64,000 nt of DNA from the sequence record NC_101835.1, one strand, 5' to 3'. Shown here piece after piece: positions 55,903 through 63,379 of the stretch. The position numbers and the translations under genes were made by a program. The notes under the pieces were generated by a model. It ran no database searches, had not been told where the DNA came from, and saw only the letters and a list, made by a program, of their open reading frames with translations. Each line of letters starts with the position of its first letter. The stretch's first letter is position 1. This stretch comes from a phage.

Positions 55903-55934
55903 AAAAGAAAGGGGCCGTTTGGCCCCTTTTTATT
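55903..55934. terminator. bidirectional rho-independent terminator
   Basis: AAAAAGAAA-GGGGCC-GTTT-GGCCCC-TTTTT between convergent genes ending at 55897 (+) and 55947 (-). Confidence 0.7.
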
Positions 55935-55946
55935 TACCCCCTCTTG

Positions 55947-58900
55947 TTAACGAGAAAAGGTTGCGTAGGCTTCTAGACGATACTGCTGGTCACCAGGGAA
56001 CATAACACCTATAGAGGCTGTCCCTAGAATCCTGCCTTCCTTTCCAGGCTCCATTCTGAACCCTACCCATCCTGAACTCCTTGCAGCCTCGATGTTGTCG
56101 CTATACCCGAAAGTGGCAAGATCGTCAACACCAGCCCCAAACAGCAACTGAAGCTGACTTCTCGGAAGCCCTATAATTTCAGGAATATACGCACCAAAGT
56201 ACACCATCTGCCCTACCTTAGGACCGCTGCCGTACTCCATCGGTTTGCTTGTAGAGAAAGTCTTCATACCAGAAGTACCTGCCGGATTAGGGTATGCCCC
56301 GTTTGTTGCTGTACCTATCCACATTCTCCACTGTGGTGCCATCTGTTTGACAGTAAAAGATGTTGAAGACGTTTTGCGCCCTGCATCATCAGTAACTACA
56401 AACTTTATGGTGACATTCCCAGTAGCTTTAAATGTTACCAGCCCTGTGGCAGCATCCACTGTTGCAATGTTGGTATTACTACTTTCCCAAGTCTTTCTAA
56501 TACCGGATACGTTGGAAGGGGTAATAGAAGGTTCCTGCATCTGCAGTTTACCACCCACAATCCCTATGCCGTTACCTGGATTATACAGCACACCAACCTC
56601 GTCTACAATGTTCCCTGCTTTGAGACTATACTTCCTTGAGAAGTTGTAGGTTCCGTTATAAGTGTGTGTCCCTGAGAAGGTGACATCTGCCTTCCCGTAA
56701 GAGATGCAAACCAAAGCATACTTCCTGTCAGGCAACGTTTCTCCAGTCTCTGGGTGAGTTTTACCCACCTGGAACACGCTCGGGTCAGTAGAGTCGTGAC
56801 TATCGCTAATGGAGCTTGGACCGCCCATCAACTGTGACAAACAATTCCTTACCCATGTCCAGTTATTATCACTGGAGAAGTCCACAGTCAAATCAAACAC
56901 AACCCACTCATTCGGCTTCCACACAGGTGTTGCAATGGACTTGCCTGCACCGCCTCCTTGGAGTGTTGCCGACTGTTCGGTGATCAGGGCCGCATAGGCC
57001 AGAGTCCCTAAACTCAGAGTCTGGCTTGCTGTCCTTACTACCTTAGAATCAGCATCTGTGAAGTTGTTGATGATTTGGAATGTGCCATAAGTGTTTTTAC
57101 AGGTAATTCTGGCGTTCAGTGTGTCAATCTTCCTCACATCTGCCATAGCAGTGTTAGACACAGAGAAGTCAGAAGCTTTAGCTGAGTTTGCCGCAACAGC
57201 AGGATCAACGTTAAGAGTTGCGTTGAACTGACAGGCAGGGGTAACCAGCAGCTTGTTATCACCTATTTGCTTCCATGAAACACTTTGAACAGGGAGATTC
57301 CATTTAATACCTGAGAAAACCTTAGCAACCCTTGGCCCCAAAGCTCCAGTCCTGTTGTCTTTACAGCACATAGACATGGTGATCGTTGACGGAGTGGCCT
57401 GACCAAATAATTGCTGTGCTTTTGCAGAGGACATGGTGTAGAAATTGTCCTTAACAAACTCATCAGCGGCTAAAGATCCATCAGCCCTCCACCACTGGAC
57501 CTGATACCCTGTTTTATCCCAGCCTCCAACCTGCTTCAAGTCCTCCCAAGAGATTTCCAGATCCCCCGTGGTAGGGTTGATTGCAGCAGTTCCTGGTGTA
57601 CCGGATGACCACAATGGGATATCAAACCACGCAGGTTTAACAGATTGCACTGCATTAGGACCTATTGCAGCAGCAAGTTGTTGACCCATCAGCACGCGAG
57701 CATCTTTCACCAGGCCCCATTCTATCATAGACCCAGAGTAACCTTCTTTCTTGTAGGCAGAGGATCCGTTCAAATGGATGAGCCTGCTGCAGTCGAAGCC
57801 ATACGCTCCACCACCGTTAGGATCTGCAAAGTTGGTTATGATTCTATCCCTAATATTTTTCCATGCCCTACCTCCAATCTCGTAGTCATGGTCATAACAT
57901 CTTTGCAACGTTGTCCAGCAAATGATTGCCATTCTTCTGCCGCCTGTGAACCCGAAAGCGCCGTCATTCAGCTCTTTCCACAGGTAACAGTTGGTTGTCC
58001 ACATAGCCCTGTGGATATTGAACCAGTTTATAGATTTGGCTGAGTTGTTCCACTGAGTCCCAGGTAATTCAGGCCACACTGCATTGACTAGCATGTCCTC
58101 TGTACCGGCATCCATTAAGAAGCCTCTTACCTTCTTGCCCATACCTACCCTGTCTTTAGCAATCCAATTGCCAAACAGTCTCAGTTTTGGACCATAAACA
58201 ACATCCTCTGGGTGCTCAAAAGAGACATACTTTAAGTAGATTGTTGGGTCACCGTAGGTGCCATCACAAACACTTTTGTGCATGTTTTCGCCAAGGTCTA
58301 GACGAAGCCCCGTCACTACTTTAGACGTGTCGGTGAATTTGTCTGTTAAGTCAAATTCATACCACCACCACCCACCACCTAGCATAAATTTCTTGCATCG
58401 CACAGCGTCTGTGTCAGATATTCTCTTATCCCCTGCAAAAGGTGAATCAGCAAACTGATAGTGCAGAGCAGTCTCAAATAGGTGGGTGGAAGTTCCGTTC
58501 TCTGCAAGAACTTGCTTACCTATCAGATCGCACTTAATGATCATCACAACACGCTTGTATCCGTTTGTTACCGGAACTTGCATAGATATGGATGTTCCAT
58601 CCATGTTCGATCTTAGATCACTCATGATGATATAGGGGTCGACAGCGTTGCCTAAAGTTTCAGGCCCTGGAATTATCTTGTATTTCTTGACCTGGCCCAT
58701 AAATCTGTCACTGGCGTAAGTTGCAGCCTCAAAACAAGAGCCACCACCAGGTAATTCTCCAGGTCCCCAGAAAAATGCCCCATAGCAGTTATAGAACCAC
58801 TTATTAGGGTCGTATTTGTTCTTGAAGGTCTGGACCTCGTTGGCCTGTTTTGTCAAGAAAACCTGCGTATCTGTAAAGATTGCAGGATTTACCCTTGCCT

Positions 58901-61583
58901 GACGCGGAGGGTAACCTGTAGTTTGGTTAAACCACAAATTACAAGAGTAATCCCTCATATAGTCATAATCAGAGTATTTGTTTACATCTTCGTTCCAACA
59001 CATGTTTAGGTTGGTACCGCCCATGCATACAATATATTCTGCGACATACTTATCACTTCTGGTAGGAATACCTATGAACCATCTGTTAACAGGCTCATCC
59101 CAAGCTGTGCGCTCATCTTTAACGCAGATAGCAATCCAGTCATGTGTTCCTGTTTTCTTGCACACATCTCGCTTCATACCGTAGTAGAACTCTTTAGTAT
59201 TCGGCTCAGGTGCATTTATCAGATAACTCCATGCCTGATTTGCATAAGTCCCATTGGTGCGCGGATCATGATCAAAGGCATACATGATGATCCTTTCCCC
59301 ACCAAGATGTTCGCCAAGAGTAACTTTGACATTCACATCGCCGTAACCGTTGCGAACAACATCTATGTTGTCAATAGAGATGCCCCTAGGGGTGTAGGCA
59401 ATTTTCAGGGAGTTATCCTCACTAGTGCCACCAAGGGTGATCCCTATGTTGTTTGTTGTCCCGTCGGCATATCTTACTGTGGCTTCCCAGCGTATTCCGA
59501 AATATCCTGCATCATGGCTAACAATTTTCAGTGTACGAGCACCAGAGTTAGGTTTTCCAGGATCAGGCCAAGGATCTGGATGTTCATGGACAGTCAACGA
59601 TGTCCCGTTTTGCTCGTTGACCTGCAACATTTTACCGCCTCTGCCGTTAGGGTTGAACTCCCACAAGGCTTGTGTTTTCACAACATTGTCATACGTGGTA
59701 CGTCTCTGATCGTAGATCTCCTGAGTCACATCGTAGGTTACAGACCCGGCATCCATTCTATGGAGTCGTACTATATACGATGTATCGCCTTCTACAGCAG
59801 GTTGAGCTGCGTTAAGCCCGAAGTATACAGTATCGTTGACATGGAACTGTTTGTTTCTACCGACAGTATGCCACTTGCCGTTGGACGGATACGCAGGAAC
59901 TATGGTGTTCCAGTTCAAAGTCCTTGTCGTATGGGTTCTGCCTGTGCCATGCTTGTCATGATAGGTTATTTTTACAGAGTACAGGCCACGTCTGTTAACA
60001 TTTCTGTTATACTGGGTAACAACAACTTCGTTGGCCCCGCCGTGGTTCCAGTTGGTGGAGAATTGGTAATTTGCATCTGTAACAACCGTACCTGCAGCAT
60101 TTACCAGTTCAATCTTGTCAATAATGAACGTAGCCCCCTCTGGCTGAGGCTTCAACTTCATCTTGACCGTGTCACCAATGTAAATATTGCTAACGCTGCT
60201 AACACCGTTAACGTCGAAAATATCCTCAACACCCCAGCTGTCTACCGGGACATTTTTATACCAATTCTCAGGAACCTCTGTGAACCCCTGGCTATTAAGT
60301 CTGCCTCCAAACAGGTTGTTAGAGCCTGCAAAACTTCCCCTTGGGATGCCTGACCACCAAAGTTTACCATTAACAACAGTAAAGGTCCCTAAGAAACCTT
60401 CTCTATGGATGCCTTGGAAATAAACACTCTCTGTCCAGCTAACTGGCAGGCGTTGCTCAACATATTTAGCTGTAGCAAGAGCTTGATAGTGGATAAAATC
60501 AGACCTAGGACTATTGTTTGCAGATTGTGCACCAATATCATTACACAAGTTGCGAGAGAATCCACGATACTGCTTGGTGCCATTATTGAAGAAAATGCCA
60601 CTTGTGCCGTACCCACGAGCCATTATTACCTCATGGGTGTAGGTGATATTCAGTTCCCGCCATGTATCATCTCCCCAAATGTTTTGACCATAAAATACGT
60701 TAACAAGCTGCTGGTCATCGGGTCTATGCATCCTCTGTGTGGCAATTATTGCCCCGTTAGGACCGCACATAAACCCTTTCCACTCCTCATCTGCAGGAAT
60801 GCCCCTCAAATCGTTACGAGTAATCTGCACAGGAGGCCAAACAAGGTCGTTTCTACTGTTATTTCTCAGAAAGTCGTATCCAGCAATCCAGAAACCTCTA
60901 GGACCACCGAAAATAACAGAGTTGTCATGCACCTCGCAGTTGATGCTTGGGTTTTTCCAAGGACCTGTTTCAGGATTTTCCGATGTCTCACCAATCTTTA
61001 CAGGGGTTGCATGCTGATTTTTGTCAACATGAAGAGAGCCGTAAGTATTATTGCCAGAGCCGTACAGGTGAAGCATACCATCAGCCTCTGGTGCAGCAAT
61101 TACCCACACTGTATTGTTTACGCCACCCATTACTTCAACAAGTCTCTCAGGATGGGTGTCCAAATGCAACCCTGTTACGATCTGTTCCGGCAAAGGTGTC
61201 CACTCTCTGACACAAACATCGTTTCCACCTGCTGCCTCCGATCCGATAAGACCAGCTGTGCAACCAATATAGAAAAATTTATTATCGAATGTGCGGATTA
61301 CAAATGCACGGTCAGCTCTCCAAACATGGTCTACGTTCCAAGCTGCCTCATTAGGATAGTTTATTGTATCAAGATCTCCAGTCCGACACTCTCCGAACCT
61401 ATTATAGCCAGTAATATTAAGCTGACCATCATCAAAAAGTATAGCTAAGCTATTTACATAGGATACTGTGTTGCTTGTACCATCACTGTTGTCTATTGGG
61501 TATGACAGAACAGCAAGTTCCTTAATTCCACCCCTCTTATCGAGGAAATGACGACCAAGTTTTAGCAAAGGGATTGGAAGCAT
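55947..61583 (-). CDS. large tail fiber/tail protein (1878 aa) with Ig-like (Big_2-type) domain
   Basis: Single ORF with GGAGAA RBS; Gly/Asn/Thr-rich; ..ITPSNVSGIRKTWESSNTNIATVDAATGLVTFKATGNVTIKFVVTDDAGRK.. Confidence 0.7.
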   Translation of the reverse strand: MLPIPLLKLGRHFLDKRGGIKELAVLSYPIDNSDGTSNTVSYVNSLAILFDDGQLNITGYNRFGECRTGDLDTINYPNEAAWNVDHVWRADRAFVIRTFDNKFFYIGCTAGLIGSEAAGGNDVCVREWTPLPEQIVTGLHLDTHPERLVEVMGGVNNTVWVIAAPEADGMLHLYGSGNNTYGSLHVDKNQHATPVKIGETSENPETGPWKNPSINCEVHDNSVIFGGPRGFWIAGYDFLRNNSRNDLVWPPVQITRNDLRGIPADEEWKGFMCGPNGAIIATQRMHRPDDQQLVNVFYGQNIWGDDTWRELNITYTHEVIMARGYGTSGIFFNNGTKQYRGFSRNLCNDIGAQSANNSPRSDFIHYQALATAKYVEQRLPVSWTESVYFQGIHREGFLGTFTVVNGKLWWSGIPRGSFAGSNNLFGGRLNSQGFTEVPENWYKNVPVDSWGVEDIFDVNGVSSVSNIYIGDTVKMKLKPQPEGATFIIDKIELVNAAGTVVTDANYQFSTNWNHGGANEVVVTQYNRNVNRRGLYSVKITYHDKHGTGRTHTTRTLNWNTIVPAYPSNGKWHTVGRNKQFHVNDTVYFGLNAAQPAVEGDTSYIVRLHRMDAGSVTYDVTQEIYDQRRTTYDNVVKTQALWEFNPNGRGGKMLQVNEQNGTSLTVHEHPDPWPDPGKPNSGARTLKIVSHDAGYFGIRWEATVRYADGTTNNIGITLGGTSEDNSLKIAYTPRGISIDNIDVVRNGYGDVNVKVTLGEHLGGERIIMYAFDHDPRTNGTYANQAWSYLINAPEPNTKEFYYGMKRDVCKKTGTHDWIAICVKDERTAWDEPVNRWFIGIPTRSDKYVAEYIVCMGGTNLNMCWNEDVNKYSDYDYMRDYSCNLWFNQTTGYPPRQARVNPAIFTDTQVFLTKQANEVQTFKNKYDPNKWFYNCYGAFFWGPGELPGGGSCFEAATYASDRFMGQVKKYKIIPGPETLGNAVDPYIIMSDLRSNMDGTSISMQVPVTNGYKRVVMIIKCDLIGKQVLAENGTSTHLFETALHYQFADSPFAGDKRISDTDAVRCKKFMLGGGWWWYEFDLTDKFTDTSKVVTGLRLDLGENMHKSVCDGTYGDPTIYLKYVSFEHPEDVVYGPKLRLFGNWIAKDRVGMGKKVRGFLMDAGTEDMLVNAVWPELPGTQWNNSAKSINWFNIHRAMWTTNCYLWKELNDGAFGFTGGRRMAIICWTTLQRCYDHDYEIGGRAWKNIRDRIITNFADPNGGGAYGFDCSRLIHLNGSSAYKKEGYSGSMIEWGLVKDARVLMGQQLAAAIGPNAVQSVKPAWFDIPLWSSGTPGTAAINPTTGDLEISWEDLKQVGGWDKTGYQVQWWRADGSLAADEFVKDNFYTMSSAKAQQLFGQATPSTITMSMCCKDNRTGALGPRVAKVFSGIKWNLPVQSVSWKQIGDNKLLVTPACQFNATLNVDPAVAANSAKASDFSVSNTAMADVRKIDTLNARITCKNTYGTFQIINNFTDADSKVVRTASQTLSLGTLAYAALITEQSATLQGGGAGKSIATPVWKPNEWVVFDLTVDFSSDNNWTWVRNCLSQLMGGPSSISDSHDSTDPSVFQVGKTHPETGETLPDRKYALVCISYGKADVTFSGTHTYNGTYNFSRKYSLKAGNIVDEVGVLYNPGNGIGIVGGKLQMQEPSITPSNVSGIRKTWESSNTNIATVDAATGLVTFKATGNVTIKFVVTDDAGRKTSSTSFTVKQMAPQWRMWIGTATNGAYPNPAGTSGMKTFSTSKPMEYGSGPKVGQMVYFGAYIPEIIGLPRSQLQLLFGAGVDDLATFGYSDNIEAARSSGWVGFRMEPGKEGRILGTASIGVMFPGDQQYRLEAYATFSR

Positions 61584-61596
61584 TGTGTTCTCCAGA

Positions 61597-61624
61597 TAAG
61601 AAAACCGCCCCGTCAGGAGCGGTT
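61597..61624 (-). terminator. rho-independent terminator
   Basis: Minus strand hairpin AACCGC-loop-GCGGTT then TTTTCTT, after stop of 61634-63379. Confidence 0.5.
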
Positions 61625-61633
61625 AGATATATA

Positions 61634-63379
61634 TTAACGTTGTGCAATTACTACGTCTACGATATCACCAACACCACAATATGTTAATTGCAGCAAGGTA
61701 ACACTATTAGCCTTGTTATTAATAACAGGCGTTGCCGACAGGATAGCATACTTATCGTGCAAAGTCACGTTGTGACCTACAGCATCCTGAATGACATAGA
61801 TAACCGCAGTGAATGGATAAGGTTTATCTTCCGCTGATGTACCAGGCCATTGTCCTATTGTAAAATCCCCTTTCGCGTGGACAACATACATACTGGCCTG
61901 CCCGTTAGGTGTCCATGTCCCACTGGACGCGTCAACCTCCTCTAAATCAAAATCTACCTTTCCTGCGTGGAAAGTAGGGGCAGTAATGGTTTTACCCGCC
62001 TCAATTTCTTGAGAGGTGGTTATCTTGCCACTGGAGTTAATGCCATTACAAACAAAGTTGACATTAGAGAAGTCTGGCAGCCACCCAGTCACTGTGCCGG
62101 ATATTTCAAGGTTGTGAAGGTAGGTGGTGCCCGTCCCTGCTGCGTTTAAACTAACATCTCCATTTACCTGCAAGTTTCTGGTAACGTTGCAGTTTTCAGA
62201 GTTTGCAGTTGTTGCAGTTAAAGTAGTGGTTGTCAGCTCGGTAATTACACCTTTGTTGGCTGTAAGCCCTTCCCCTTCAAAAGTTGCACGCTCATTGACT
62301 CTTAGGGTATTCAGAGCTATGTTTTGGATAGAGGCTGTACCTCGAATAACTACAGATCCGCCAACTTCTAAATCACCATTTATTAATGCGTCCCCCGTGC
62401 TTTCAATATAGCTAGGGTAAATCATGGTGCCATCGACAGAGTAGGTTATCCCTGTAACAGTGCCTGTCACCTCAAGGTTCTTAACCCTGGTGGTTCCATC
62501 TACCTGCAATGTCGGTTCGGTTGCTGCCTTCATGGCATTACCACGAATGTACACGTAGTCAAAAAAGTTATTACCTAGACCATCAAAATGCACATCGTTA
62601 TTATTAGCCACTGGTTTCCCAGAAGTTATAGTGTCAGCTATAACCCTGTGGGTGGACACTTCATGAGGTTGCAGCTCTGTGCTTCTCCAGTCTGCATGCT
62701 TAGGATCACTCCACGCAAAAGTAAGTGTAGAAGTATTTGCCGTGAGGATTAGGTTCCTGAAGCGTGCAGTAGAATCTGCTCCATTAACAGGCCCATGTAA
62801 GGTGAGTGTGCCACCAACTATAGTGTTAGCAAGTTCTGTAAGACCTTTTACCACCAAAGACCCTACAGTAACTTTCATTCCCTCCATGGCTTCAAATATG
62901 CTATCCACATAGTCAACAACAAACTCTGTGTTTGCTATAGACTCGGATTTGTCGTCCATTGGAGGCGTAGGTACTCGCGGGTCACCTTCGAACCTCGGAC
63001 TGTTAAGTTTTGCGTAGTATTTTGCCATTACTGCAGAATCGGTATATAATCTCCAGTTTGGAGATTGTGAAGGATCTGCTGGCATTCTAACCGGGTTAGA
63101 TTTTGATGCTGCGGGAGCGTACCACCACTGAGGGCCTGTGTCCCCTTTAAACTCGTACAGCTGGTTAAAAACTGTTGTGGATGCACCATACGCCCAAGGG
63201 ATTGGTGGCGTTTTAAAATAAAGGGTGTCAAGCATGGCTTTTCGTACCGTAGGGATGGTGGTCCCATCCTCTACGACAACTTCATCCACAGCGTTACCGT
63301 TGACAATCAGGTGCAAACGTTCAGAATCAACAATTACTTGATCTACCGCCTGCTCAAAGCTTGTCATGTCTTGCGCCAT
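61634..63379 (-). CDS. tail fiber/tail spike-like protein (581 aa)
   Basis: AAGGAGAAATC RBS; repetitive G/T/N/V-rich beta-rich sequence next to the giant tail gene. Confidence 0.6.
   Translation of the reverse strand: MAQDMTSFEQAVDQVIVDSERLHLIVNGNAVDEVVVEDGTTIPTVRKAMLDTLYFKTPPIPWAYGASTTVFNQLYEFKGDTGPQWWYAPAASKSNPVRMPADPSQSPNWRLYTDSAVMAKYYAKLNSPRFEGDPRVPTPPMDDKSESIANTEFVVDYVDSIFEAMEGMKVTVGSLVVKGLTELANTIVGGTLTLHGPVNGADSTARFRNLILTANTSTLTFAWSDPKHADWRSTELQPHEVSTHRVIADTITSGKPVANNNDVHFDGLGNNFFDYVYIRGNAMKAATEPTLQVDGTTRVKNLEVTGTVTGITYSVDGTMIYPSYIESTGDALINGDLEVGGSVVIRGTASIQNIALNTLRVNERATFEGEGLTANKGVITELTTTTLTATTANSENCNVTRNLQVNGDVSLNAAGTGTTYLHNLEISGTVTGWLPDFSNVNFVCNGINSSGKITTSQEIEAGKTITAPTFHAGKVDFDLEEVDASSGTWTPNGQASMYVVHAKGDFTIGQWPGTSAEDKPYPFTAVIYVIQDAVGHNVTLHDKYAILSATPVINNKANSVTLLQLTYCGVGDIVDVVIAQR

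Follow-up and report, generated by a model that had tools for sequence, protein, structure and literature searches.

A candidate accessory adhesin closing the Vequintavirus tail-fibre operon joins RCC1-like, N4 gp65-like and Ig-like modules in one 1878-residue protein

What is the largest "fibre" gene of an rV5-like coliphage, and does its product set host range? We examined this question in NC_101835.1, a 64,000-nucleotide stretch of phage DNA (hereafter the window) whose source is a Vequintavirus. The gene is a complete minus-strand open reading frame (ORF) at 55947..61583 that runs from ATG to stop, encodes 1878 residues and closes the tail-fibre operon, which spans gp49 to gp27 in rV5 numbering. 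Orthologs of the gene are rV5 gp27, bas53_0040 and bas54_0041 (the orthology of the last was checked in this analysis), and its DNA is 99.9% identical to that of phages I29, inoa and JohannBauhin (Bas53). The gene is already known, as rV5 gp27, and is uncharacterised: rV5 gp27 is listed as a 'conserved hypothetical protein' of 1878 aa and 208 kDa, the BASEL annotation of the ortholog is 'lateral tail fiber protein with intimin domain', and another label is 'Ig-like domain-containing protein'. A sequence-only reading of the window had described the product as a tail protein, a likely host-range determinant and a possible carrier of depolymerase or carbohydrate-binding modules. In our analysis it looks like neither a classical fibre nor the main host-range switch, but like an accessory glycan-binding adhesin.

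Domain annotation bore out the Big_2-like segment named in that reading and added a second recognizable domain near the opposite end of the protein (all coordinates of its parts refer to the minus strand). The Big_2 Ig-like domain (Pfam PF02368; residues 1682-1733, 56385..56540) scored 35.3 bits against a curated cut-off of 22.8 (E=1.1e-8). The segment quoted earlier, ITPSNVSG...DDAGRK, lies at residues 1687-1736, and the region matches intimin and S-layer Ig domains in the PDB. At the N-terminus, an RCC1-like repeat beta-propeller occupies about residues 20-440 (60264..61526). A family profile of this part (A4), built with Phapecoctavirus and Seunavirus homologs, had no PDB matches other than RCC1-like structures (UVR8, E=1e-8; HERC1, HERC2, RPGR, RCC2 and RCC1), and the Pfam RCC1 cut-off of 21.7 is passed by the homologs 4MG_038 (36.9 bits) and ESCO13 gp245 (24.0 bits); the 1878-aa protein itself gave no Pfam RCC1 match at E<0.1. 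Stand-alone RCC1-like proteins have been reported in the virion of the related phage W70. An AlphaFold2 (AF2) model of residues 1-1000 placed strands across residues 20-235 with a predicted local distance difference test score (pLDDT) of 50-70; residues 234-400 fell below 30, and the model is of low confidence for counting blades.

Between these two domains lie several further modules. A beta-rich region (residues 445-840; 59064..60251), with AF2 beta-strands at pLDDT 45-70, probably consists of several Ig-like sandwiches; one homolog gave a weak Bact_surface_Ig-like match there. An hhalign search for internal repeats across 11 segments returned nothing above 7% probability. The core that follows begins with a helix-rich part (residues 842-960; 58704..59060; helical in the AF2 model at low confidence) carrying an invariant CxGGTN motif at 853-858. 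It continues with a beta-jelly roll at residues 964-1124 (58212..58694), whose modelled fold we judged similar to the beta-sandwich fold of characterised carbohydrate-binding modules (CBMs), and with a C-terminal part at residues 1128-1350 (57534..58202), delimited by hhalign and tblastn, that holds the invariant motifs GTEDM (1160-1164) and MIEWG (1286-1290). An FN3-like beta-sandwich was modelled next to it (residues 1354-1424; 57312..57524). A divergent region (residues 1430-1680; 56544..57296) of 12-35% identity to distant homologs, with several indels, leads to the Big_2 domain, and a C-terminal tip domain ends the protein (residues 1753-1878; 55950..56327). PHROG family phrog_215 covers the protein from residue 1592 on (the C-terminal 290 aa).

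The AF2 models were used selectively. The model of residues 1-1000, made from a 7-sequence alignment, had a mean pLDDT of 39.9 and was unusable for fold search. That of residues 835-1445 (mean 49.7) was usable only for 964-1124 and 1354-1424, its helix-rich parts scoring below 50, and fold matches were interpreted only for these two beta-sandwich domains of the core. A full-length family profile searched against PDB sequences gave only marginal Ig-like matches. Neither trimerising elements (coiled coil, triple beta-helix or collagen-like repeats) nor Peptidase_S74 appeared in Pfam, PHROG or PDB sequence searches, and the AF2 models show a globular, mixed secondary structure.

An exhaustive HMMER search with the core (residues ~842-1430) over 1.84 billion representative proteins returned only family members and one fn3 protein, which marks the core as specific to this phage clade in that search, and word-indexed homolog searches with sub-regions gave almost no matches. 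A BFVD fold search with the core model picked phi92 gp153 (E=6e-8). This protein matches gp65 of phage N4 by phmmer (E=1e-24; gp65 residues 506-593, 911-1067 and FN3-like repeats), and tblastn with it led directly to a Vequintavirus gp27 ortholog (E=6e-4). Av-05 gp106, an intact Avunavirus protein from the same operon position, matched the family profile of residues 1125-1430 with an hhalign probability of 83-87% (E about 4e-6), and a combined profile of Av-05 gp106, phi92 gp153 and N4 gp65 matched the family with 88% probability (E=3e-6). Direct hhalign comparison of the core with N4 gp65 alone was not significant (E=0.08), so the relationship is a transitive one: residues ~1147-1396 are homologous, via phi92 gp153 and Av-05 gp106, to gp65 residues 440-603 and 912-1067, as is the neighbouring FN3-like domain. 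The CxGGTN motif aligns by position with 'FAGGDNAA' of Av-05 and 'FAGESQVA' of N4 gp65, an alignment that hhalign does not find significant (E 0.04-0.3). N4 gp65 has been described as a monomeric receptor-binding protein (RBP) of 10 domains that pairs with gp64 and serves as the non-contractile tail sheath protein.

A different link between these phages has been published, a 'deacetylase' homology from N4 to Vequintavirus that comprises only ~55 residues (rV5 gp34 302-359 versus gp65 375-429); the rV5 gp34 ortholog lies at L001 22832-24904. N4 gp65 thus has separate pieces in common with two rV5-type tail proteins, gp34 and gp27. NCTSP_N (PF23844) and TIM-barrel_NCTSP (PF23845), both present in N4 gp65 and in the rV5 gp34-type fibre, are absent from the 1878-aa protein, and the idea that its core is the TIM-barrel_NCTSP deacetylase-type domain of rV5 gp34 was rejected (hhalign probability 0.1%). 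When the Av-05 domain was used to search for related loci, Av-05 was the sole match. Among metagenomic homologs (P0003-P0015) the core is mosaic: P0012 is of the P0003 type in its first third and of the P0008 type thereafter, an alignment pattern indicating that sub-domain blocks have recombined within the core.

The sequence-only reading had allowed for an enzymatic module. Right-handed beta-helix lyase or hydrolase folds and sialidase-type domains were not found by Pfam, PHROG, PDB or fold searches, and Pfam and PDB-sequence searches of the protein gave no lyase, hydrolase or other enzyme family above threshold. Pfam SASA (sialate O-acetylesterase; PF03629) appeared below its cut-off of 24.8 in two relatives, phi92 gp153 (16.3 bits, E 0.008) and Av-05 gp106 (17.4 bits, E 0.0035), and had no match in the 1878-aa protein itself. 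The family's A6 profile recovered no SGNH structure from the PDB, N4 gp65 being its only match. In the candidate block I motif, C-M-G-G-T857-N, Thr857 takes the place of the expected Ser nucleophile, and the invariant Glu1288 is aligned with the His of 'RIHY' (Tyr in N4). Because these residues replace the expected Ser and His and no SGNH structure was recovered, enzymatic activity is unsupported. The depolymerase suggested earlier did not materialize: no canonical one was found, and the N4-gp65-related domain lacks the Ser and His of an SGNH/SASA esterase. Carbohydrate-binding modules are plausible, a fold-based prediction from the CBM-like jelly roll.

How might such a protein be attached to the tail? 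The neighbouring gene encodes a 581-aa lateral tail fibre, rV5 gp28 (61634..63379, minus strand; phrog_4549, E=1.5e-250). The sequence-only reading correctly saw a fibre-like gene here but had it follow the 1878-aa gene; both genes are on the minus strand, so the fibre gene precedes it in transcription. Residues 8-325 of the gp28 fibre match a wedge-bound fibre chain in the phiTE baseplate structure (PDB 9CUY/9MJN, E=8.7e-77). The same arrangement, a fibre gene of 580-670 aa and then the last gene of the operon, occurs in Vequintavirus, Phapecoctavirus (ESCO13 gp245), Seunavirus (4MG_038 and PVP-SE1 gp40), Justusliebigvirus (phi92 gp152/gp153) and Avunavirus (Av-05 gp106).

The downstream proteins of the five genera range from 202 to 1878 aa and carry very different modules, but all start with M-[LFY]-P-I-P, the only feature common to all of them; this start is kept even where the propeller is missing (phi92 gp152, Av-05 gp106). 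In the window it is the peptide MLPIPLLKLG (61554..61583, minus strand). The upstream fibres in turn have only their last ~100 aa in common (47-56% identity, E about 1e-25), and the remainder can be unrelated. One of these fibres, ESCO13 gp246, carries a Tail_spike_N (TSP1/Gp66) domain. The shared C-terminal segment corresponds to about 61634-61950 (minus strand) in the window. As the fibre C-terminal ~100 aa and the N-terminal peptide are the only features co-conserved in the five genera, we infer that they form a docking pair. A physical interface, with the peptide plugged into the C-terminal head of the fibre as a platform, would best explain their paired conservation. Five genera that infect different hosts all keep the gp28-type head although the shafts differ, which is unusual for a distal tip; the tip is normally the most variable part of a fibre.

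Whether the protein determines host range can be approached from its variation and from the phenotype of its ortholog. The gene is present in ~120 phage records, with protein identity of 91-100% in more than 100 of these (Vequintavirus). Among 15 full-length homologs, identity falls from ~75-80% (residues 1-450) through 50-70% (450-750) and 30-65% (750-1430) to 12-35% beyond. Declining conservation from N- to C-terminus is usual for receptor-binding proteins. Two tip alleles exist in Vequintavirus: the sequences are the same through Big_2, after which the differences lie mainly in two loops on a conserved scaffold and in the C-terminal end. The window copy and rV5 carry allele A and Bas54 carries allele B. 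The tip is not common to the Seunavirus and Phapecoctavirus homologs, with which Big_2 is the only C-terminal part in common. BASEL lists the gene among three large fibre genes with allelic variation and rates the variation of this protein 'moderate'. In published HIDEN-SEQ transposon mapping of Bas54, bas54_0041 tolerated disruption on E. coli K-12, so neither K-12 infection nor the formation of virions requires it; some lateral fibre genes of the same phage were conditionally essential on clinical isolates. This dispensability applies directly to the gene in the window, which is the same gene as rV5 gp27, bas53_0040 and bas54_0041 in length and position and has no structural difference from them. 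With this conservation, only two tip alleles and an ortholog that K-12 infection does not require, the earlier call of a likely host-range determinant is reduced to a role that is at most conditional and accessory.

On balance, we favour with moderate confidence an account in which the 1878-aa protein is a large, low-copy, non-essential virion adhesin, probably monomeric, that is docked on the gp28 head and makes glycan contacts. Its N-terminal peptide (M-L-P-I-P...) would dock on the head formed by the last ~100 aa of gp28, the lateral fibre bound to the baseplate; from that head the remainder would extend as a beads-on-a-string chain of globular domains: propeller, Ig-like sandwiches, core (CBM-like jelly roll, N4-gp65-type domain and FN3-like domain), Big_2 and loop-variable tip. 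Such a chain could make weak multivalent contacts with surface polysaccharides, which would improve adsorption to certain hosts or in certain environments and would not be needed on E. coli K-12.

Several observations weigh against this account. In virions of rV5, multidimensional protein identification technology detected gp27 by 9 spectra of 3 peptides, all low-scoring and non- or semi-tryptic (3.1% coverage); this mass spectrometry (MS) support is weak, the same list includes rIIA, and its authors gave gp27 no MS-evidence flag. A later comparison table does place rV5 gp27 and its short homolog PVP-SE1 gp40 among virion proteins. By cryo-electron microscopy, only three proximal fibres could be resolved in Bas49 and Bas54, and the 1878-aa protein was not reported; phi92 fibre II and six of the nine annotated Bas49/Bas54 fibres are without gene-to-density assignment. 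PHROG files the C-terminal module (phrog_215) under 'head and packaging', the AF2 models are of low confidence over most of the protein, and the head conserved at the fibre C-terminus could serve folding or receptor binding instead and have nothing to do with this protein. The designation as a tail protein nevertheless finds support in the operon-end position, the layout kept in five genera and the virion MS listing, weak as the underlying spectra are.

Three other explanations account for parts of the same evidence. The protein could be a classical homotrimeric lateral tail fibre, as the BASEL annotation has it, and the principal host-range determinant. Its position in the fibre locus and its annotation suggest this, as do its place among the three large BASEL fibre genes with allelic variation, its loop-variable tip and the conditional essentiality of some Bas54 lateral fibre genes on clinical isolates. 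We nonetheless consider this unlikely: coiled-coil, beta-helix, collagen-like and Peptidase_S74 features were not found by Pfam or PHROG, a globular RCC1-like propeller starts ~20 residues from the N-terminus, the core's relative N4 gp65 is monomeric, and the protein is 91-100% conserved in the genus, dispensable on K-12 and not among the Bas49/Bas54 fibre densities. A second alternative is an active glycan-modifying enzyme (O-acetyl esterase, deacetylase or depolymerase) acting on capsule, enterobacterial common antigen (ECA) or NGR-type polysaccharide. The sub-threshold SASA matches in phi92 gp153 and Av-05 gp106 are consistent with one another, block-like motifs (GG[TDS]N, G-x-E-D and IH/IE) are invariant in the family, N4 gp65 has 'GES' at the first block, and an adjoining CBM-like module is typical of carbohydrate-active enzymes. 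Set against these are the lack of any above-threshold enzyme-family match for the 1878-aa protein, an A6 profile that matches only N4 gp65 in the PDB, Thr857 rather than Ser as putative nucleophile, the invariant Glu1288 (Tyr in N4) at the His position of 'RIHY' and a block I alignment that is statistically not significant, which together make such an enzyme quite unlikely.

Lastly, the protein might not belong to the tail at all: it could decorate the capsid or neck as Hoc does, be no part of the virion, or be a relic in decay. The 'head and packaging' filing of phrog_215, the marginal rV5 MS signal, the dispensability of the gene, its annotation in fragments in V18 and APECc02 and the fragmented phi92 equivalent would all fit. 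This we regard as very unlikely, given a frame of 1878 codons that is intact and 91-100% identical in more than 100 genomes, a location between the operon's terminators in the same orientation as the fibre genes, the virion listing of the short homolog PVP-SE1 gp40 and fibre synteny kept in five genera. A bolder extension of the adhesin account deserves mention, as a speculative and unlikely idea: the core and the central domain of N4 gp65, phi92 gp153 and Av-05 gp106 would form an undescribed glycan-recognition or -processing family with an SGNH-like layout, non-canonical active-site residues and ECA/NGR as targets, and gp27 would be a monomeric 'second receptor arm' held on a fibre socket by a portable peptide. 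N4 and rV5-like phages have both been reported to depend on conserved enterobacterial glycans (ECA or NGR).

Comparison with described systems places the adhesin reading in context. N4 gp65 (PDB 9LC0, 9YF4/5/T) is, like the 1878-aa protein, large and built of globular and FN3-like modules; it differs in being the sheath of a podovirus rather than the product of a myovirus fibre locus and in having no M-x-P-I-P start. No gp64-like partner for the 1878-aa protein was identified in this analysis. The short positional homologs (PVP-SE1 gp40/4MG_038, 567 aa; ESCO13 gp245, 891 aa; Av-05 gp106, 647 aa; phi92 gp152 and gp153) have the locus, the N-terminal peptide and Big_2 domains in common with it. 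The RCC1-like propeller is common to the Seunavirus and Phapecoctavirus homologs, and the N4-gp65-like and FN3 modules to those of Avunavirus and phi92; only the Vequintavirus-type protein combines all modules, its ~1000 extra residues comprising the beta-rich region, the jelly roll, residues 1430-1680 and the tip.

T4 Hoc and the Big_2/FN3 decorations of phages resemble the 1878-aa protein in their surface-exposed Ig-like domains, in being unnecessary for growth in the laboratory and in a presumed weak binding of carbohydrates; such Ig-like accessory adhesins of phages were reportedly treated by Fraser et al. in 2006. Unlike Hoc-type adhesins, the 1878-aa protein comes from a tail-fibre operon and not from among the genes of the capsid; its size is much greater, and it includes a propeller and an N4-gp65-like module. 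The principle by which one RBP docks on another through a short N-terminal module is the same in CBA120 TSP1-4, G7C gp63.1/gp66 and the T4 gp36-gp37 joints, and the putative pair of fibre C-terminal head and M-x-P-I-P peptide is not among the described adaptor modules.

Several features of the gene itself and of its records complete the description. A GGAG ribosome-binding site lies 6 nt 5' of the ATG. The protein is 10.0% Gly, 7.9% Thr and 6.9% Asn, ~25% in sum, where typical E. coli proteins have ~17%. The Gly/Asn/Thr richness noted in the sequence-only reading is therefore genuine but moderate, and Trp, at 3.0%, is also high. A strong intrinsic-terminator-like hairpin stands 3' of the gene at the operon end (55908..55929, minus strand). 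A weaker one (61603..61624, minus strand; AACCGCTCC-TGAC-GGGGCGGTT, then TTTTCTTATCT) falls within the 50 nt that separate the fibre-gene stop from the ATG of the 1878-aa gene, where it may damp read-through and hold the protein at low copy number. Two antisense ORFs fall wholly within the gene (59142-60353, plus strand, 403 aa; 60405-61448, plus strand, 347 aa) and are most likely compositional artefacts, not genes.

Some relatives carry broken or doubtful copies. In V18 (NC_041937) and APECc02 (KR698074) annotation divides the gene into 3-4 separate hypothetical proteins that cover it in part, which could reflect frameshifts, sequencing errors or pseudogenisation, the last of which would fit dispensability. 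The phi92 locus is split (L011 8321-9983): gp152 comprises the N-terminal peptide and two Big_2 domains without a propeller, and after a 166-nt gap follows gp153, an N4-gp65-like and FN3 fragment with a GTG start that is annotated 'no RBS, weak statistics'. To judge from this arrangement, the pair looks like a decayed or rearranged copy. Fifteen or sixteen MG0656xx records ('Campylobacter phage C2, D1, A141...') are 94-99.9% identical over the gene to E. coli rV5-like phages; labelled as Campylobacter jejuni phages, they are probably contaminating coliphages or mislabelled records. Part of the N-terminus recurs at 100% identity in P0017, an NCBI entry titled 'hypothetical protein, partial [Eggerthella lenta]' whose contig measures 955 bp, probably as phage contamination of an Eggerthella lenta assembly.

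The domain parse, the N4-gp65 relationship and the plug-and-socket pair were not found in the literature searchable for this analysis; the protein itself is a variant of the known modular-RBP theme. Phages of the rV5-like and phi92-like groups are popular broad-host-range candidates for therapy whose 'Swiss-army-knife' adsorption apparatus is largely unassigned. The annotation 'intimin-domain lateral tail fiber' suggests a classical fibre, a picture that these results correct. Should our more conditional claims prove wrong, the gene would be an ordinary conserved accessory tail gene. If they hold, the largest 'fibre' gene of these phages encodes a dispensable, propeller-headed, N4 gp65-related adhesin, probably plugged into the gp28 tip, and is a candidate for the unresolved densities. 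The plug-and-socket pair conserved in five genera would then offer a possible handle for swapping distal binding modules, reusable for engineering.

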